Origin: a plasmid
Length of the DNA stretch: 4,996 bases
Direction: 5' to 3' (one strand)
Assembly (NCBI RefSeq): GCF_055900595.2
Contig: NZ_JBVWEU010000010.1
In this document: one piece after another, positions 1 through 4,996 of the stretch
Layout of the letters: each line of letters begins with the position of its first letter
How positions within the stretch are numbered: the stretch's first letter is position 1
Position numbers and translations under genes: made by a program
The notes under the pieces: generated by a model
The model's database searches: none
Told to the model about the DNA's origin: nothing
Seen by the model: the letters and a program-made list of their open reading frames with translations, nothing else

Positions 1-139
1 ATGCACGAACCCCCGTTCAGTCCGACTGCTGCGCCTGTTCCGGTAACTTTCGACTTGAGTCCAACCCGGAAGGCACGACAAAACGCCACTGGCAGCAGCC
101 ACTGGTAAGGGGTGTACAAGAATTACTGGTGCAGAGTTC

Positions 140-169
140 TTGAAGTTACAGCCTAACTACAGCTAAACT
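140..169 (+). promoter_or_regulatory. RNA I promoter (-35 TTGAAG 140-145, -10 TAAACT 164-169)
   Basis: TTGAAG is identical to the pMB1 RNA I -35 and sits in the conserved agagttcttgaag context; 18-bp spacer to TAAACT. Hexamers read directly from sequence; function inferred. Confidence 0.55.
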
Positions 170-175
170 GAAAGG

Positions 176-280
176 ACAGATTTGGTGGCAGCGGTCTTGT
201 ACACCCTGTTACCACGGTTCAGAAGTTCCCCAACTTACTGATCCTTCGAAAAACCACCTCCCCAGGTGGTTTTTTCGTTT
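176..280 (+). ncRNA. RNA I antisense copy-number control RNA (ColE1-type)
   Basis: Starts at ACAGA (cf. pMB1 ACAGTATTTGG) about 7 nt downstream of a TAAACT -10 box; ends at an intrinsic terminator (stem accacct 253-259 / aggtggt 264-270, then a T-run). Length ~105 nt and position relative to the RNA II promoter match ColE1 RNA I. Stem-loop sequences differ from pMB1. Confidence 0.75.
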
Positions 281-290
281 ACAGAGCAAA

Positions 291-319
291 AGATTACATC
301 CCGCAGGTTAGGATCTCAA
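291..319 (-). promoter_or_regulatory. RNA II primer promoter (-35 TTGAGA = rc of 314-319, -10 TAATCT = rc of 291-296)
   Basis: Reverse complement of ggatctcaagaagatcc..agatta gives TTGAGA - 17 bp - TAATCT, the same hexamers and spacing as the pMB1 RNA II promoter (ggatctcaagaagatcc is conserved). Confidence 0.6.
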
Positions 320-495
320 GAAGATCCTTTTAATCGGAATTCGACAACTCCAGATAAGTCATGGTGAGCCAGCCAACCCCTTCGACTGAATATCGTTCCA
401 AAAAAAGGCAGTCAGCTGAAAGAAACTAACAGTAGAACAATAATCTCTAGTACCCTGAATCTAAGCTAACAACAAAACTAGATTAGGAGTTATAG

Positions 496-1554
496 ATGGC
501 GATCTATGCCGTATGGAATAACAAGGGTGGTGTAGGGAAAAGTTACCTTACTTTTCAGTTAGCCTCTGAATATGCCAGACAGAACCCTACTAAAAAGGTC
601 CTGGTGGTTGACCTGTGCCCACAAGCGAACTCGTCCTCTATGTTACTTGGTGGAATGATAAATGGCGAAAACACACTAAACCAGATTCATTCAGCAATAC
701 AGAGAAAGACAATATCTGGATATATTGAGGATAGGATCAGAAGTCCATATATTCCTACCAACACTGGTTCTAGCTATGTAATAAATGTATCTACACACAA
801 TAGTAAAGTTCCAAATAATCTATATCTTGTCACTGGCGATGAACAATTAGAACTCCAAGCATCAAGAGTTGTTGGGGCATCATTTCCAGGTCCCCATGAT
901 GCATGGCGTACTGTTCACCTCTGGATTAATGATTTAATCAGTGACATTTGCAACTCATGGAATAATGAAGATAGCTGCGTATTCATTGACTGCAACCCTA
1001 GCTTCTCTATTTATACAGAGTTAGCTTTAACCGCAGCAGAGCGCCTTTTAATTCCTTTCTCTGCCGATGGTTCATCAAAGAGAGCAGTTAAGGCTGTACT
1101 TTCTTTAGTTTATGGTGAGCGTCGCCATCAGAATGAACCACAATCAGATTTCTATCTTAATAGCAATCGTTATTCTATGTCGCTACCACAAATATATATG
1201 TATGTTGGAAATAGATTAACGCAAATGAACAATTCATCTGCCAGTGCATTTAAGACGGTAGTAACCGAAATTGGTGATGAAATTTGGAAAGTATGGCAAA
1301 CAAAACCAAGTCTGTTTTGTATTCACCCAAATGGGAGCTCAACGCCAAATAATAAAAGATCTTTCAGGAATATGTTTCAGTATGAAGTAAATGATGCAAA
1401 CACAGCATCTGTCGTATCTGGAGCCTTAGGTATTCCAATCGCGACATTAACTGCAGGAAATAAAACTGTTTCAGGAAAAATAATAAAGGTTAATCAGACG
1501 CAGCTAGATAAACAAGTCCCCAACATTGTAGCTCTCGCTGGTATGATCGAATAA
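496..1554 (+). CDS. ParA/MinD/Soj-superfamily P-loop ATPase, 352 aa, with ~90-aa C-terminal extension of unknown function
   Basis: ATG preceded by AGGAG (484-488, 7-nt spacer). Deviant Walker A KGGVGKS at residues 10-16 (nt 523-543); ParA-type VLVVDLCPQANSS segment; Walker B-like CVFID (nt 976-990) followed by NPSFSIYTELALTAAERLLIPFSAD. Long uninterrupted ORF ending at a strong intrinsic terminator. AT-rich compared with the backbone. No symbol assigned because the specific family is not recognised. Confidence 0.85.
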   Translation: MAIYAVWNNKGGVGKSYLTFQLASEYARQNPTKKVLVVDLCPQANSSSMLLGGMINGENTLNQIHSAIQRKTISGYIEDRIRSPYIPTNTGSSYVINVSTHNSKVPNNLYLVTGDEQLELQASRVVGASFPGPHDAWRTVHLWINDLISDICNSWNNEDSCVFIDCNPSFSIYTELALTAAERLLIPFSADGSSKRAVKAVLSLVYGERRHQNEPQSDFYLNSNRYSMSLPQIYMYVGNRLTQMNNSSASAFKTVVTEIGDEIWKVWQTKPSLFCIHPNGSSTPNNKRSFRNMFQYEVNDANTASVVSGALGIPIATLTAGNKTVSGKIIKVNQTQLDKQVPNIVALAGMIE

Positions 1555-1556
1555 AA

Positions 1557-1590
1557 TAGCAAGGCCCTTAAAAGGGCCTTTTTTTATTTG
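1557..1590. terminator. Bidirectional intrinsic terminator between convergent genes
   Basis: Perfect 7-bp GC-rich stem aaggccc (1561-1567) / gggcctt (1574-1580) with 6-nt loop, followed on the plus strand by a T-run (1581-1585 and beyond) and flanked on the minus strand by a weaker U-rich stretch. Lies 3 nt after the ParA-like stop and just after the stop of the 1584-1841 minus-strand ORF. Confidence 0.7.
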
Positions 1591-1841
1591 TTTTTCTTTA
1601 CTGCTTGCAGCGCCCTGCCAGCACTAGAGGCCAACTCTTTGATTACATTATCTTTACTTTCAACAACCTCAGTAAGCAACTCGTTTTCGTTTTCCAGTTT
1701 ATTCAAAGCGTTCTGAGTATCTTCAATAGCATCATCATACCCTTCGGCATAGCCATCCATCCAACCAAGAGTATACGTTTGGTCCAAAAGATCAGCTTGC
1801 TTATCCTGCAGATCTTTATTCTGATTATTGTTAGAGCCCAT
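1584..1841 (-). CDS. Small acidic hypothetical protein, 85 aa (D/E/N/Q-rich, probably helical)
   Basis: ATG at 1841 preceded on the minus strand by TGAGGAAAAAAC (GAGG about 8 nt upstream); ends at the shared terminator. The plus-strand antisense ORF (1605-1901) starts with TTG, lacks an SD and is hydrophobic, so the minus-strand reading is preferred. No recognisable family. Confidence 0.6.
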   Translation of the reverse strand: MGSNNNQNKDLQDKQADLLDQTYTLGWMDGYAEGYDDAIEDTQNALNKLENENELLTEVVESKDNVIKELASSAGRALQAVKKNK

Positions 1842-2016
1842 GTTTTTTCCTCATTTGTTGGCGCATCTGAGTTTTCAAACCAGGAGGAATTCCATTTCTA
1901 AGTTTCTCACTTAGTCTGACTGGTGGTGTGTTTCCTGAGACTGGATTACAGTCAGCATCCACCCCGACATCTTTCTTTTTATAGTCGCCAATATTCCTAA
2001 CGTTATCTGTAGTCAT
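1831..2016 (-). CDS. Possible small basic protein, 61 aa, overlapping the start of the 85-aa ORF by 11 nt
   Basis: ATG at 2016 downstream of the AT-rich divergent promoter region; its last codons contain the SD of the next ORF (translational-coupling geometry). No convincing SD of its own and no recognisable motif; may be only a 5' leader. Confidence 0.3.
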   Translation of the reverse strand: MTTDNVRNIGDYKKKDVGVDADCNPVSGNTPPVRLSEKLRNGIPPGLKTQMRQQMRKKHGL

Positions 2017-2179
2017 AGAAAACCACGCCCATTGCTGTGAATAACCGAACTATAAACCAGAAAAAAAACGTACGGCTTATCATAACACTTGACACAAAAA
2101 AACACCGCTACTCTCCAAGCAAAAAACATAAAATTGGAAAAACAAAATCACAAGCACATGATAACAATAGATATTAATA

Positions 2180-2207
2180 TTTACTTACATTTAGTGAGTT
2201 TTATAAT
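2180..2207 (+). promoter_or_regulatory. Candidate sigma70 promoter for the 143-aa ORF (-35 TTTACT 2180-2185, -10 TATAAT 2202-2207)
   Basis: Exact TATAAT hexamer with a 16-bp spacer to a TTTACT -35-like hexamer, ~50 nt upstream of the ATG at 2259, inside a 240-bp AT-rich divergent intergenic region. Prediction by eye only. Confidence 0.35.
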
Positions 2208-2258
2208 TAGAAAAACAATGTAATTTAATAATCACAAACATTACCTAAGGACGAACTG

Positions 2259-2690
2259 ATGAAAATACCCGCGCATTTGAAGCATAAACCAATTATTCAA
2301 GTCGAAAATTACGACCGCATTGACGGCCCACATGCCGATGACACTGATGCTATGGGGCTATCTGTAGGTATTGCTCAATGGAACACTCCTGGATGGACTG
2401 AGCTTTCGGCAAAGGTTTGGCGAAACACAGGAGAAAAATGGTCAAGACAATCAGAAGAGCTGCCTCTTCACCGGGTAATCGACCTTGCAACTCTGATCTG
2501 TATCACCATGGACTACAGTAAAAATGGGCGACTTTCATCCAGTGATGATTTTCCCGTGACTCGCTCAACTGATAACCCTGAGCTAGCACATCACACTGAG
2601 TTTATGAAAAAAGAGTTAAAACAAAATAAAAGCAATCTTGATGTAAGCCTCAAACGCCTCTCGACTGAATTGAAGAGACTTGGCTATTAA
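2259..2690 (+). CDS. Hypothetical protein, 143 aa, unknown function
   Basis: ATG preceded by TAAGGA (2246-2251, 7-nt spacer); candidate promoter upstream; ORF ends 38 nt before the first Xer-like site. No recognisable catalytic motif; C-terminus is K/E/L-rich. Confidence 0.65.
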   Translation: MKIPAHLKHKPIIQVENYDRIDGPHADDTDAMGLSVGIAQWNTPGWTELSAKVWRNTGEKWSRQSEELPLHRVIDLATLICITMDYSKNGRLSSSDDFPVTRSTDNPELAHHTEFMKKELKQNKSNLDVSLKRLSTELKRLGY

Positions 2691-2727
2691 AACTAGCTTT
2701 AGAAATGTCTACCTACTTCACAGACGA

Positions 2728-2755
2728 ATTTACCATAACATCCGTTTTTCGAACC
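2728..2755 (-). other. XerC/XerD-type site-specific recombination site (cer/dif-like, 6-bp central region), site 1
   Basis: Minus-strand reading GGTTCGAAAAA-CGGATG-TTATGGTAAAT (11-6-11). The XerD arm is identical to the cer XerD arm TTATGGTAAAT; the XerC arm matches consensus GGTGCGnAnAA at about 7 of 11 positions. Shares an identical 20-bp core (aatttaccataacatccgtt, 2727-2746) with site 2. Confidence 0.6.
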
Positions 2756-2760
2756 ATAAT

Positions 2761-2778
2761 GGCAGGCTATAGCCTGCC
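2761..2778. repeat. Perfect 18-bp palindrome ggcaggctatagcctgcc
   Basis: The sequence equals its own reverse complement; lies between Xer-like site 1 and the stop codon (2784) of the 134-aa minus-strand ORF. No strong T-run, so a terminator role is uncertain; could be a protein-binding site. Confidence 0.5.
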
Positions 2779-2783
2779 GTAAT

Positions 2784-3188
2784 TCACCGGAAAAAATCAT
2801 CCACAGAGTCGCTCCACTCATGCCCGGAAAGAGACCACACCTTGTTTATAGGGGGAGGATAACCACTCCTGCAGTACCCGTTTTTTCCCACGAAATCGAA
2901 TGCCCCGTGCGGGTATCCATTGATCAGGAGTACGCACTTCTGACTGTCTTCTGACCAGCCAATTTTAACATCAGAAGGAATGTGACCGTCTGAAACGTCT
3001 TCGGCATTGTAGATGTGTACTGCGTCCATAATCGGGTTTCCCTCGACGGACTCATCGAGCGCATAGAAATACCCGGTCCGGCCATCGTCTTCGAACACGG
3101 CGGCCAGCATGCCCTCAGGAGCGAGGCTCTTTATAACCTGTTCCTCCCCGACAACGAGCTGGGCCTGTATCGTCACTAAAATGGTCAT
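2784..3188 (-). CDS. Hypothetical protein, 134 aa, GC-rich, cargo of the Xer-bounded cassette
   Basis: ATG at 3188 with AAGGAG about 10 nt upstream on the minus strand; the ORF fills almost all of the interval between the two Xer-like sites. No motif recognised. The overlapping 70-aa minus-strand ORF (3115-3327) is judged spurious. Confidence 0.6.
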   Translation of the reverse strand: MTILVTIQAQLVVGEEQVIKSLAPEGMLAAVFEDDGRTGYFYALDESVEGNPIMDAVHIYNAEDVSDGHIPSDVKIGWSEDSQKCVLLINGYPHGAFDFVGKNGYCRSGYPPPINKVWSLSGHEWSDSVDDFFR

Positions 3189-3245
3189 CAGGTCTGTTCT
3201 CCTTTCCTTGGTTGCTTCGGCAGCCAGCTTTCAGACAAGCGGATA

Positions 3246-3273
3246 ATTTACCATAACATCCGTTATCAGCATC
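3246..3273 (-). other. XerC/XerD-type site-specific recombination site (cer/dif-like), site 2; candidate plasmid multimer-resolution site
   Basis: Minus-strand reading GATGCTGATAA-CGGATG-TTATGGTAAAT; central region and XerD arm identical to site 1, XerC arm about 8 of 11 to consensus. About 300 bp of GC-rich sequence with no credible ORF lies on its XerC side (3274-3580), where cer-type accessory sequences would be expected. Confidence 0.6.
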
Positions 3274-3594
3274 GTCAGAAACGCGCTGAGGGCGTTTCTG
3301 ACGGGAAACCGGTAAAACAGGCAACAAACCACCCGAAAACCCGCCAGAAACGCGCAGGCTCTGTTTTTATGGCATGCATGAGTATGCACGCAAGTGCATA
3401 GCGCGAATATTCACGCCATTCAGACAGGGTAAGTCCTGTTTCCGGCGTTCTTCCCATCCGAAAACGGTGAACGGGGACGCAATTTATTGCGTGGCCGTGA
3501 AGCGTTGCCGGCGCAGCCGGAAAACCGGTTTTCAGCACGTTCAGGAATCGGGTTCGTCGACGGCCGGCAATCACGTTATGGCAAGTCGCCGGAC

Positions 3595-3784
3595 GACTCA
3601 CCACACGATTCACCGGCGACTCTGCACTAGAGTCGTACCTAGAGTCGCCGCGACTAAAAAACAACCAAACGGGGAGTCGGGTCTAGAGTCGGGTCGTTAT
3701 TAACTCATTGTTTTTATAGCCCTGAGTCGTTACCGACTCTATGACGACTCGCCGGGGACTCTATGACGAGTCGTCATAGAGTCG
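3595..3784. repeat. Array of 12 GAGTC/GACTC motifs (11 as the hexamer GAGTCG/CGACTC), including two pairs of tandem 12-bp repeats and nested inverted repeats
   Basis: Counted directly: GAGTC at 3630, 3642, 3674, 3686, 3724, 3768, 3779; GACTC at 3595, 3618, 3735, 3746, 3757. Tandem ctagagtcg at 3627 and 3639; tandem gagtcgggtc at 3674 and 3686; 13-bp gactctatgacga at 3735 and 3757 (direct) and 3771 (inverted). Chance expectation for a 5-mer on both strands in ~190 bp is under 1. Confidence 0.7.
3757..3783. repeat. 27-bp perfect palindrome gactctatgacgagtcgtcatagagtc (13-bp arms around a central G)
   Basis: Every position i pairs with position 28-i; sits at the end of the GAGTCG array, immediately before an AT-rich stretch (3786-3860). 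Confidence 0.75.
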
Positions 3785-3982
3785 GATCTATATAAATAAA
3801 ATTTAAAAAACGAAATCTCAGGAAAGTAAACTACTGATATTAAATACAAATCTGCAAAATTTTAATTTTGCGTGGGGTGTGGGTATTTTTAGTGGTGAGG
3901 AGCGTTCAGAGATCTGACTATTTTTGGGAAGGTTCAGGAACTCCCCGGGATGGCCGGAGAGGAAAACTGAAGCATGACAGGG

Positions 3983-4384
3983 TCAGGATTTTTTCCAGAA
4001 TTTCCACCATGGCGCCGGGGATTCAGTTAATTTTGCCTGGTGATTTTCAAGAAGGAGCATGGCCTGTTTCAGGCTGTCAATGTGCGAATCTTTGGACAAA
4101 AGTAAAGTGTTCAGGTGTTCAATCTCCTGTTTCAGATGACGAATCACCTGTTCACACTGGTCAACAGAGGCTGTATCGCGCTGTTCAGAGACCTGTCCAG
4201 AATGGTGTTCACCCTTCAGTTGTTCAAAGGGACCAAAGACACGTAAAAGCTCTGAAGTATCTACCATTTTTGCATTGCGCTCACCGCTACAGGTGGACAG
4301 GTCACCTGCTTTAATTAACCTGTGCAGTGTTGTTCTACTCTTACCCGTCAGTCGGGCTGCCTCACTAATAGACACTCTGGCCAT
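3983..4384 (-). CDS. HTH DNA-binding protein (excisionase/MerR-like HTH_17-type N-terminus) with C-terminal coiled-coil-like region, 133 aa
   Basis: N-terminus SISEAARLTGKSRTTLHRLIKAGDLS fits the excisionase-family HTH pattern (EAAxLxGxSxxTxxRLIxxGxL); the C-terminal half is heptad-like and Q/E/L-rich. Start ATG overlaps the rop stop (TGATG at 4382-4386), implying co-transcription and translational coupling. Its antisense 148-aa ORF is Arg-rich and judged spurious. Confidence 0.7.
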   Translation of the reverse strand: MARVSISEAARLTGKSRTTLHRLIKAGDLSTCSGERNAKMVDTSELLRVFGPFEQLKGEHHSGQVSEQRDTASVDQCEQVIRHLKQEIEHLNTLLLSKDSHIDSLKQAMLLLENHQAKLTESPAPWWKFWKKS

Positions 4385-4575
4385 CAGTTACCATCCTGTA
4401 ATGCATCCAGTCTCGAGGACAGTGTACGGAAAAGATGCTCCGCATCATCGTGGAGTTTCTCACAAAGGTCGGCCTCGACATCAAGATCAAGCTCGTTAAG
4501 CTTCTCCAGCAGGAGCAGAGATTGATGCTGGATGAATTTAGCCATGTTCAGCGCTGTTTTCTGTTGTTTCGTCAT
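4384..4575 (-). CDS. rop: Rop/Rom RNA I-RNA II interaction modulator, 63 aa
   Basis: Translation MTKQQKTALNMAKFIQHQSLLLLEKLNELDLDVEADLCEKLHDDAEHLFRTL... closely matches ColE1/pMB1 Rop (MTKQEKTALNMARFIRSQTLTLLEKLNELDADEQADICESLHD..., recalled from memory), with identical length of 63 aa; located just downstream of the origin in replication direction. Confidence 0.9.
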   Translation of the reverse strand: MTKQQKTALNMAKFIQHQSLLLLEKLNELDLDVEADLCEKLHDDAEHLFRTLSSRLDALQDGN

Positions 4576-4599
4576 AAGAGGCCTCAGAGCGTCAGTGCT

Positions 4600-4996
4600 C
4601 AGTGTAGGGATGTTCTCTCTTCCGCTTCCTCGCTCACTGACTCGCTACGCTCGGTCGTTCGGCTGCGGCGAGCGGCAGGAGCATACGTTATGAAAGCTCG
4701 AGAAAACCGAGCGATCATGTAATTAAGCAAAGGGCAACGAAAGGCCGCGCCGCTGGCGTTTTTCCATAGGCTCCGCCCCCCTGACGAGCATCACAAAAAT
4801 TGACGCTCAAGTCAGAGGTGGCGAAACCCGACAGGACTATAAAGATACCAGGCGTTTCCCCCTGGAAGCTCCCTCGTGCGCTCTCCTGTTCCGACCCTGC
4901 CGTTTACCGGTGTCATTCCGCTGTTATGGCCGCGTTTGTCTCATTCCACGCCTGACACTCAGTTCCGGGTAGGCAGTTCGCTCCAAGCTGGACTGT
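4600..4996. other. ColE1-type origin of replication region (RNA II 3' domain, primer RNA-DNA transition, conserved origin-proximal hairpin region); continues at 1-330
   Basis: Near-identity by eye to pMB1 over cttccgcttcctcgctcactgactcgct.cgctcggtcgttcggctgcggcgagcgg and ggccgcg..gctggcgtttttccataggctccgcccccctgacgagcatcacaaaaat.gacgctcaagtcagaggtggcgaaacccgacaggactataaagataccaggcgtttccccctggaagctccctcgtgcgctctcctgttccgaccctgcc. The RNA-DNA switch is expected near 4735-4745 (inference, not mapped). Confidence 0.85.
4738..4996 (-). ncRNA. RNA II replication primer precursor, 3' portion up to the origin
   Basis: Continuation of the minus-strand RNA II from position 1 across the circular junction; the 3' boundary is approximate and placed by analogy with pMB1, where the primer ends near the ggccgcg..gctggcgttttt motif. 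Confidence 0.65.

Follow-up and report, generated by a model that had tools for sequence, protein, structure and literature searches.

The 4,996-bp window considered here (the whole stretch of DNA that was analysed; contig NZ_JBVWEU010000010.1) is a complete small ColE1-type plasmid, and the subject of this account is its block of AT-rich cargo at positions 330-2730, which lies between the promoter of RNA II and the first of two Xer recombination sites. Nearly identical plasmids of 4,991 bp (99.2-99.4%) are recorded from Klebsiella, Escherichia coli and Enterobacter, and the annotation of these relatives names ParA-family, DUF6530, DUF2251, helix-turn-helix (HTH) and Rop products. The block, divided below into modules A and B, and the features that bound it are arranged as follows; related sequences carry L numbers.

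1-329, minus strand: 5' part of the RNA II/RNA I replication-control region; backbone, and left limit of the cargo.
177-278, plus strand: RNAI (Rfam, 101.8 bits).
319-291, minus strand: RNA II promoter, with -35 hexamer TTGAGA (319-314) and -10 hexamer TAATCT (296-291) read from the sequence.
330-408, no strand: junction between ori and module A; 79 nt, lineage-specific, with no blastn match in L001 or L002.
409-495, plus strand: DNA preceding the ParA-like gene; similarity to L001 and L002 begins at 409.
426-453, plus strand: promoter-like element, CTAACA, 16 nt, TAGTAC.
496-1554, plus strand: deviant Walker-A ATPase of the ParA/Soj/McdA fold, 352 amino acids; core of module A.
1561-1580, no strand: bidirectional intrinsic terminator with an 8-bp stem and a T tract on either strand; L001 and L002 conserve it.
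1584-1841, minus strand: orf85, acidic, 85 amino acids; second gene of an operon convergent on the ParA-like gene.
1831-2016, minus strand: orf61, 61 amino acids; first gene of that operon, overlapping orf85 by 11 nt.
2017-2057, no strand: right end of module A; its homologue in L001 and L002 meets the XerD arm of cer within about 5 nt.
2058-2174, no strand: junction between modules A and B; 117 nt, A-rich, about 30% GC, matching neither set of relatives.
2175-2258, plus strand: DUF6530 promoter region and left end of module B; TTTACT, 16 nt, TATAAT at 2180-2207 (10/12 matches).
2259-2690, plus strand: DUF6530 gene, 143 amino acids; core of module B.
2728-2755, minus strand: Xer site 1, GGTTCGAAAAA-CGGATG-TTATGGTAAAT (XerC arm, spacer, XerD arm); right end of the block, and distal Xer site for the DUF2251 cassette.
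2756-3245, minus strand: body of the DUF2251 cassette, outside the block, with the gene at 2784-3188 and a terminator-like hairpin at 2761-2778.
3246-3273, minus strand: Xer site 2, GATGCTGATAA-CGGATG-TTATGGTAAAT; cer-type core of the backbone.

The distribution of the block among plasmids is that of variable cargo. Homology of the ori region to at least 5000 other ColE1-type plasmids stops at 329-334, some 10-15 nt past the -35 hexamer of RNA II, whereas any part of 330-2730 is matched by only 68 PLSDB records, 44 of them at 99% identity or more (the family of this plasmid) and 24 at 80-90%. Like the variable regions of ColE1 plasmids, the block is separate from the conserved replication region (RNA II/RNA I, ori and rop). 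Within the family it is kept whole at 99.8-100% identity in 33 records, which include 4,473-bp variants and larger plasmids. In all examined ColE1-type plasmids in which an Xer core was found the order is the same, namely RNA II promoter, cargo, cer (XerD-spacer-XerC), accessory sequences, and mob or rop. The cargo in that slot varies by plasmid and includes toxin-antitoxin pairs, hypothetical genes, DUF6530, ParA and DUF2251; L003, L004, L008, L012 and L014 are plasmids in which other cargo fills it. A preliminary description of the plasmid, made from the sequence alone, had asked whether the block is variable cargo; comparison with related ColE1-like plasmids answers that it is (68 records against at least 5000 for ori), and universal conservation in the plasmid family was not seen.

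Base composition also separates the block from the backbone. Its GC content is 39.2% over 2401 nt, compared with 50.5% for the other 2595 nt. When the circular sequence is segmented by unconstrained maximum likelihood with two breakpoints, the low-GC part runs from 271 to 2760 (39.1% inside, 51.0% outside), and the log-likelihood ratio is 35.9; over 30 base shuffles this ratio averaged 4.7 and never exceeded 7.6. GC content at third codon positions (GC3) splits the genes likewise, being 31% in the ParA-like gene, 36% in orf61 and 40% in both orf85 and DUF6530 inside the block, and 60% in DUF2251, 53% in rop and 46% in the HTH gene outside it. The marked AT-richness that had been noticed by eye is therefore confirmed by the segmentation and by GC3, with both edges as described. 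All three AT-rich genes of the preliminary description lie in the block; their number rises to four open reading frames under selection with the addition of orf61. The figures are to be read with the caveat that the block is uneven (in 200-nt windows, 28% GC at 2101-2300 and 49.5% at 2301-2500) and that an AT-rich patch also occurs outside it (37% GC at 3701-3900).

There is an even chance that this GC step is a stable, selected trait of small mobile-element cargo genes rather than a mark of recent foreign origin. The ParA-like gene has a GC content of 35-43% and a GC3 of 20-38% in every examined host, whatever the GC content of the host flanks (34-58%), and a synonymous divergence (dS) of about 1 between ColE1 lineages has brought no amelioration. 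Low and variable GC is moreover the published general pattern of ColE1 variable regions, which range over 32.4-52.5% as against 51.7-59.4% for conserved regions (PMC5864857), and the contrast between block and backbone agrees with it. The AT-richness is a property of the travelling genes themselves and not of a single donor genome. This explanation of the step is compatible with the reading favoured below, not opposed to it, and is silent on junctions at Xer cores; if the step is a stable selected property, it holds little information on how or when the block arrived.

The two parts of the block also occur separately. Module A (409-2057) comprises the ParA-like gene, the bidirectional terminator and the convergent orf61-orf85 operon, and is found at about 84% identity, without DUF6530, in the mobilizable ColE1 plasmids L001 and L002 of Enterobacter and E. 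coli. Comparison of the junction sequences shows that in both of these the end of module A runs into the XerD arm of cer within about 5 nt. Module B (2175-2692) comprises DUF6530 and its own promoter, and is found at 77-78% identity, without module A, in L003, L004, L005 and L012-L015. Its distance from the XerD arm of cer is 36-46 nt in L003, L004 and L012; an extra small open reading frame stands between module B and the nearest Xer core in L005, L014 and L015, and in L013 an Xer core was not found. L002 aligns with the window in one gapped alignment over 2-2054, in which 330-408 alone has no counterpart. These units circulate independently among plasmids, and the interpretation favoured here, with somewhat better than even confidence, is that 330-2730 is the accessory cargo compartment of a 5-kb ColE1-type plasmid, not acquired as one piece, and that it was built up unit by unit through Xer recombination in the manner set out below.

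A record of how such a unit moves lies just outside the block. Xer site 1, on which the preliminary description had placed the right boundary, is a genuine XerC/XerD-type core, and sites 1 and 2 repeat each other in direct orientation, with starts 518 bp apart and with a common XerD arm and CGGATG spacer. The XerD arm fits the consensus at these two sites only; the other 11-mer with two or fewer mismatches (2963) lies inside the DUF2251 gene. Positions 3245-3345 are homologous to the cer regions of many ColE1 plasmids, with homology to accessory sequences to the right of site 2. The 4,473-bp variants (L007) lack exactly 518 bp and keep a single core, in which the shared XerD arm and the spacer are joined to the XerC arm of site 2. 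The same DUF2251 cassette stands beside the cer of an unrelated mobilizable Klebsiella variicola plasmid (L008), there with its own XerC arm, GGTTCGAACAA. The DUF2251 unit (2728-3245) has thus been inserted or deleted precisely from Xer core to Xer core, and it is the youngest unit, still doubly flanked. Homologues of DUF2251 at 81-83% identity also occur on large Klebsiella virulence-type plasmids such as pK2044.

Direct evidence of Xer recombination in the window is limited to this DUF2251 unit. A systematic scan (up to three mismatches in the XerD arm, up to six in the XerC arm, spacers of 6-8 nt) detected no core with two or fewer XerD-arm mismatches in 330-2727 and no phased XerD-arm-like 11-mer with three or fewer in 330-408. 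The scan also covered 330-495, where the preliminary description had seen no second Xer-like site at the left boundary, and likewise found none there. Look-alikes with three or fewer mismatches number 21 on that strand, of which two are the true sites and the rest occur at background frequency. Those at the A/B junction (2052, 2075, 2087 and 2121, with three mismatches each) are at this background level, and the one at 2052 is homologous to the end of module A itself in L001 and L002 and not to their XerD arm. A 28-bp core (2728-2755) accordingly flanks the block on its right side only.

Outside the window, relatives of both modules are flanked by Xer cores or inserted at them. In L003 and L012, which are Citrobacter and Enterobacter plasmids, two cores in direct orientation flank DUF6530; the cores of L003 are at 3871-3898 and 4593-4620, L012 is arranged alike, and the distal core in both is AGGGCGCAATA-CGGATG-TTATGGTAAAT. 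For the ParA-like gene the most informative case is Proteus vulgaris pRS12-78 (L009), which equals the 2,683-bp qnrD plasmid pRS12-11 (L035) plus a 1,603-bp insert with a ParA homologue. Positions 1-995 of L009 correspond to 1-995 of L035, and 2579-4286 to 976-2683 (the insertion was compared over L009 977-2607 and L035 976-1003). The two matches overlap by 20 bp, and the XerD arm GTTTAACATAA and spacer AAGGGA are therefore duplicated. The new XerC arm of L009, AATGCAATTAA, adjoins the ParA promoter, and the cassette-type core reads AATGCAATTAA-TCCCTT-TTATGTTAAAC. Cores lie at 977-1004 (minus strand), 2141-2168 (plus strand) and 2580-2607; the inverted core among these, at 2141-2168, directly follows the ParA stop codon and yields the alternation D/C, C/D, D/C. 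This insert (ORF5) had been reported without a mechanism (Guillard 2014, PMC3913671).

ParA homologues occupy comparable positions elsewhere. One is inside a pdif module of Acinetobacter baumannii pK09-14 (L010, sites 3005-3032 and 5468-5495), one directly follows the XerD arm of cer in an Erwinia plasmid, and one lies about 700 bp from the chromosomal dif site of Vibrio fluvialis (AGTGCGCATTA-TGTATA-TTATGTTAAAT). Units A and B are thus Xer-flanked or Xer-inserted in other plasmids, and pairs of empty and occupied plasmids with junctions inside the core exist for DUF2251 (window and L007) and for ParA (L009 and L035). As a separate observation, L014 (pB1021) has a RelE/ParE-type toxin-antitoxin pair at 169-1065 between two direct Xer cores, the distal one being GATGTTGACAA-CGGATG-TTATGGTAAAT, 93% identical to site 2 of the window; this unit is another candidate Xer cassette on a ColE1 plasmid.

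These arrangements suggest a model in which the compartment would be a stack of self-contained, promoter-carrying units with the RNA II promoter at one end and the XerD side of cer at the other: A (409-2057), B (2175-2692) and, just outside the block, C (2728-3245). Each unit would arrive as a circular cassette through XerCD recombination at the cer core; insertion would duplicate the XerD arm and spacer and leave the cassette-derived XerC arm on the far side. Newcomers would land beside cer and shift older units toward ori, and the far-side sites of the older units A and B would since have decayed or been deleted, so that these units became fixed in place. As read from the sequence, the movement is probably catalysed by XerC/XerD. 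The duplication of XerD arm and spacer is seen twice, in the comparison of the window with L007 and L008 and in that of L009 with L035. Site integrity also falls with distance from cer, sites 2 and 1 being intact and none being present at 2058-2174 or 330-408, and the order in this single plasmid (ParA siteless, DUF6530 siteless, DUF2251 with both sites) fits the model. The Xer-linked acquisition proposed in the preliminary description thus survives for the individual modules alone, and solely by analogy with their relatives; it is not supported for the block itself, whose left edge and A/B junction show no recognizable site.

Several observations weigh against a stack built by XerCD. A second Xer core is absent from both units, A and B, in this plasmid, and no empty and occupied pair exists for either on the ColE1 backbone of the window. 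A phased XerD-like 11-mer (7/11) that precedes the ParA gene of L002 has no counterpart in L001 or the window and was rejected as a remnant site. The argument from decay with distance is drawn from one plasmid. The ParA unit is oppositely oriented in Erwinia and its flanking sites are inverted in Proteus and Acinetobacter, and no single geometry therefore applies. Synonymous divergence between unit A of the window and that of L001 and L002 is about 1, which implies that unit A has long been resident in ColE1 plasmids and that its original insertion can only be inferred. Finally, the window and L007 differ by 2 mismatches over 4902 through the origin of numbering to 3623, and by 73 over 3624-4901. 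These breakpoints (about 3624 and about 4901) lie off the Xer cores, and homologous recombination is therefore clearly active in this plasmid family; recombination at the Xer core (3246-3273) was rejected as the source of the contrast (95.4% vs 99.9% identity).

The last point favours an alternative in which the cargo was exchanged between co-resident ColE1 plasmids by RecA, or by cointegrate formation and resolution, with ori and cer or its accessory sequences as anchors, the Xer cores being merely landmarks at the edge of conserved DNA. The left boundary of the block falls exactly at the end of ori homology and has no site, L002 is collinear with the window over the ori region and unit A save for 330-408, and the absence of a recognizable site at both the left edge and the A/B junction makes a homologous-recombination route via the ori and cer flanks possible. 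Such exchange would leave unexplained the junctions inside 28-bp cores, with their duplicated XerD arm and spacer and cassette-specific XerC arm, as well as the doubly flanked DUF6530 of L003 and L012, and the junction repeats are only 20 bp, a poor substrate for RecA. This alternative is considered less likely than XerCD-mediated stacking, of which it is the main competitor.

Far less probable is the version put forward in the preliminary description, in which the whole of 330-2730 is one element gained in a single Xer-site-associated event. It draws on the position of the right boundary at Xer site 1 and on the near-identity of the block as a unit in the 33 family records. Outside this family, however, the distributions of A and B are disjoint, in L001 and L002 unit A runs directly into cer with no DUF6530 between, the A/B junction at 2058-2174 matches neither set of relatives, and a left-hand site was not found; the separate occurrence of the modules contradicts a single gain. 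Insertion of the block by a transposon, insertion sequence or integron can practically be dismissed, its sole link being the ParA-like gene as an attC-flanked cassette in the V. cholerae superintegron, whereas the window has no transposase or integrase reading frame, no attC-like element was seen in it, and a search for inverted or direct repeats at the borders of the block and of its units found none.

A wider reading may be offered tentatively, at rather less than even confidence. RNA-primed plasmids of Enterobacterales, meaning ColE1-type plasmids of Klebsiella, Enterobacter and Citrobacter and the Col3M plasmids of Proteus, would possess an integron-like, XerCD-driven cassette system whose units stack from cer toward ori. 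The units would be one-gene circles with their own promoter and a non-canonical XerC arm, and older units would be fixed by decay of the distal site. Their cargo would come from a pool held in common with Acinetobacter dif modules, Vibrio integron cassettes, dif-integrated elements and integrase-adjacent island slots, a pool that would include the orphan 352-amino-acid ParA-like ATPase, DUF6530, DUF2251 and toxin-antitoxin pairs.

The genes of the block are real and constrained, with ratios of nonsynonymous to synonymous substitution (dN/dS) of 0.02-0.28. The ParA-like protein (dN/dS 0.02) matches Pfam AAA_31 at 1e-17 and also CbiA, and its AlphaFold2 model has a predicted local distance difference test score of 91 and matches Soj, McdA and ParA best in Foldseek (E about 1e-12). 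The KGGVGKS motif is conserved, with K10, G12, G14 and K15 invariant; the score against the NCBIfam ParA_partition model is 52 bits, compared with a cut-off of 180. Proteins of exactly 352 amino acids and 75-80% identity occur across distant phyla, in Vibrio, Methylomonas, Dickeya, Thiomargarita and Candidatus Electrothrix, and the homologue in the pdif module of pK09-14 has 68% nucleotide identity. In the superintegron of V. cholerae chromosome 2 the gene is an attC-flanked cassette (L017 3764-5195), in Methylomonas and Dickeya it occupies a slot beside P4-type integrases (L019 and L020, 4001-5059), and in V. fluvialis it lies at the end of a dif-linked element (L023 4001-5785). A motif of the type TAACAGTA...TAGTA precedes the ATG by 59-71 nt at 13 loci, which include Klebsiella, Proteus, Vibrio, Dickeya, Methylomonas and Hydrogenophaga, and this promoter-like element accompanies the gene in every host.

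No ParB partner accompanies the ParA-like gene, which is followed by the terminator and convergent reading frames, and there are no centromere-like repeat arrays in 300-2800; in the V. cholerae cassette and in the Proteus and Erwinia plasmids the gene stands alone. PADLOC-DB 2.0 gave no significant match for the proteins of the block (best E 0.006-0.009, short and partial). An assignment to a known defence system was rejected, as PADLOC has no model for the ParA-like protein and NCBIfam and PHROGs recognize it only as a generic ParA. A role in competition between mobile elements or in phage defence is the best guess, and a tentative one; maintenance of the element ranks a close second.

The two small genes of module A, orf61 and orf85, occur in enterobacterial plasmids in its company alone and evolve under purifying selection; all 65 plasmid records with orf85 (tblastn) are carriers of module A. 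orf85 has a dN/dS of 0.08 and belongs to no family beyond a weak FliH-like similarity (E 0.002), while orf61 is annotated in L001 and L002, with 59-67% amino acid identity and a dN/dS of 0.19-0.28. In these two plasmids (L001 3768-4274, L002 2451-2954) the operon starts about 45 nt past the XerD arm and reads away from the core, so that its transcription could start at a promoter that lies in cer or overlaps it. The cer region of ColE1 contains the promoter Pcer.

DUF6530 (dN/dS 0.02) has a confident AlphaFold2 model for which no fold neighbour was found in the PDB, and a literature search found no papers on it; orf61, DUF6530 and DUF2251 have no match in NCBIfam or PHROGs. Homologues of DUF6530 include a gene at a prophage end in Pseudomonas, one on an integrase island in Pectobacterium and one beside ArdA in Acinetobacter. 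Homology of the window with L003, L004 and L012 begins at 2175-2179 and includes a conserved block around TTACATTTAGT. This block (window 2196-2235) overlaps the DUF6530 promoter in all four plasmids compared, and within it L003, L004 and L012 have a 16-bp palindrome, TTAGTAAATTTACTAA, which is degenerate in the window; block and palindrome may be an operator.

The remainder of the backbone carries two further genes and several side observations.

4384-4575, minus strand: rop.
3983-4384, minus strand: OrfX-like HTH gene, whose start codon overlaps the rop stop codon.

The HTH protein is homologous to OrfX of Acinetobacter Rep_3/OrfX plasmids (NF038291, E 4e-17) and is 28% identical to OrfX of pK09-14 (E 3e-11). 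OrfX is reportedly suspected by the Hall laboratory of a role in the movement of dif modules. In L008 a relative with 33% identity is the immediate neighbour of the distal core of that plasmid's DUF2251 cassette. A link between the OrfX-like gene and plasmids with several sites was considered and rejected: the gene is present in the window, L007 and L008 and absent from the two-core plasmids L003, L012 and L014 (tblastn, E <= 1e-3). The segment 3624-4901, which contains this gene, rop and ori proper, is 5.7% diverged between the 4,996- and 4,473-bp forms, and this indicates a swap of the replication backbone by homologous recombination.

Between the cer region and the OrfX-like gene, positions 3591-3790 form a dense array of direct and inverted repeats containing GAGTC/GACTC, including a perfect 19-nt inverted repeat (3733-3751 and 3767-3785), and a very AT-rich stretch follows at 3790-3870; the array could be a binding array or a site related to transfer or replication. 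Several records described as complete fall short of 4,991 bp, namely NZ_CP079813.1 (3264 bp, L006), NZ_CP079651.1 (3518 bp) and NZ_CP072418.1 (3724 bp). L006 spans only 27-3290 of the window, hence lacks ori proper, rop and the HTH gene, and is most likely an assembly artefact. NZ_CP059753.1 is grouped with these anomalous PLSDB records of the plasmid, and four records give Enterococcus faecium as host, which is implausible for a ColE1 replicon.

Clinical Enterobacterales contain many small ColE1-type plasmids, often with resistance genes, and little has been documented of how these gain cargo when neither transposons nor integrons are involved. Sequence-level examples of one-gene units entering or leaving at Xer cores are the 518-bp DUF2251 cassette and the 1,603-bp ParA insert of Proteus, and the cargo compartment would be a layered record of such events. 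The analysis also draws attention to two strongly conserved (dN/dS 0.02) and widely mobile genes, the orphan ParA-like ATPase and DUF6530. If the XerCD cassette system is real, mobility of the dif-module type is not unique to Acinetobacter, and the orphan ParA-like gene would represent an undescribed and highly successful accessory function of mobile elements, whether defence, exclusion or maintenance.

Among known systems, the division of ColE1 plasmids into conserved and variable compartments has already been published (Ares-Arroyo et al. 2018, PMC5864857; 2021, PMC8683028). The block shares with the variable region its place outside ori and rop, its lower and heterogeneous GC content and its plasmid-specific non-resistance genes. 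It differs in resolving into units of promoter plus gene on the XerD side of cer; the two papers describe the compartments, without any cassette-like subdivision linked to cer. That Xer sites take part in the evolution of small plasmids in enterobacteria was proposed by Tran et al. 2012 (qnrB19 plasmids) and likewise by Zakharova et al. 2002 (pECL18/pKPN2), both as cited in PMC6764390, PMC7399989 and PMC8683028. Judged from their titles and these citing papers, the systems share with the window ColE1-like cargo boundaries at Xer sites and a proposed gain and loss of modules by XerCD, and they differ in that the cargo of the window includes no resistance or restriction-modification genes.

Acinetobacter dif modules (Blackwell and Hall 2017; PMC13141974), which PMC13141974 describes as unique to that genus, are likewise small units that are exchanged between small plasmids and have 28-bp XerC/XerD-type cores at their ends; the pK09-14 module contains a homologue of the ParA-like gene, and an OrfX-like HTH protein is encoded in the backbone of the window. 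Sites of dif modules are inversely oriented (C/D ... D/C), whereas sites 1 and 2 of the window are direct, and inverse orientation was seen only in L009 and L010; the alternation in L009 is typical of dif modules, here in a Col3M plasmid outside Acinetobacter. Units A and B of the window moreover have at most one site, and the replicon is an RNA-primed ColE1 rather than Rep_3. Type I ParABS loci share the ParA/Soj/McdA fold and the deviant Walker A motif (KGGVGKS), but the window gene has no ParB or centromere-binding operon partner and no centromere-like repeats, stands on a high-copy ColE1 replicon, and also occurs alone in integron cassettes and beside integrases. Integron cassettes resemble the units in being one-gene elements beside a fixed recombination site, the newest nearest to it, and the same ParA-like gene is a cassette in V. 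cholerae. The window differs in having no integrase, attC or attI, its sites are Xer cores, and its units have their own promoters. Set against these systems, the cassette-like substructure tied to cer, the mechanism of the Proteus insertion and the spread of one orphan ParA-like gene across recombination platforms may be the new aspects of the present case.

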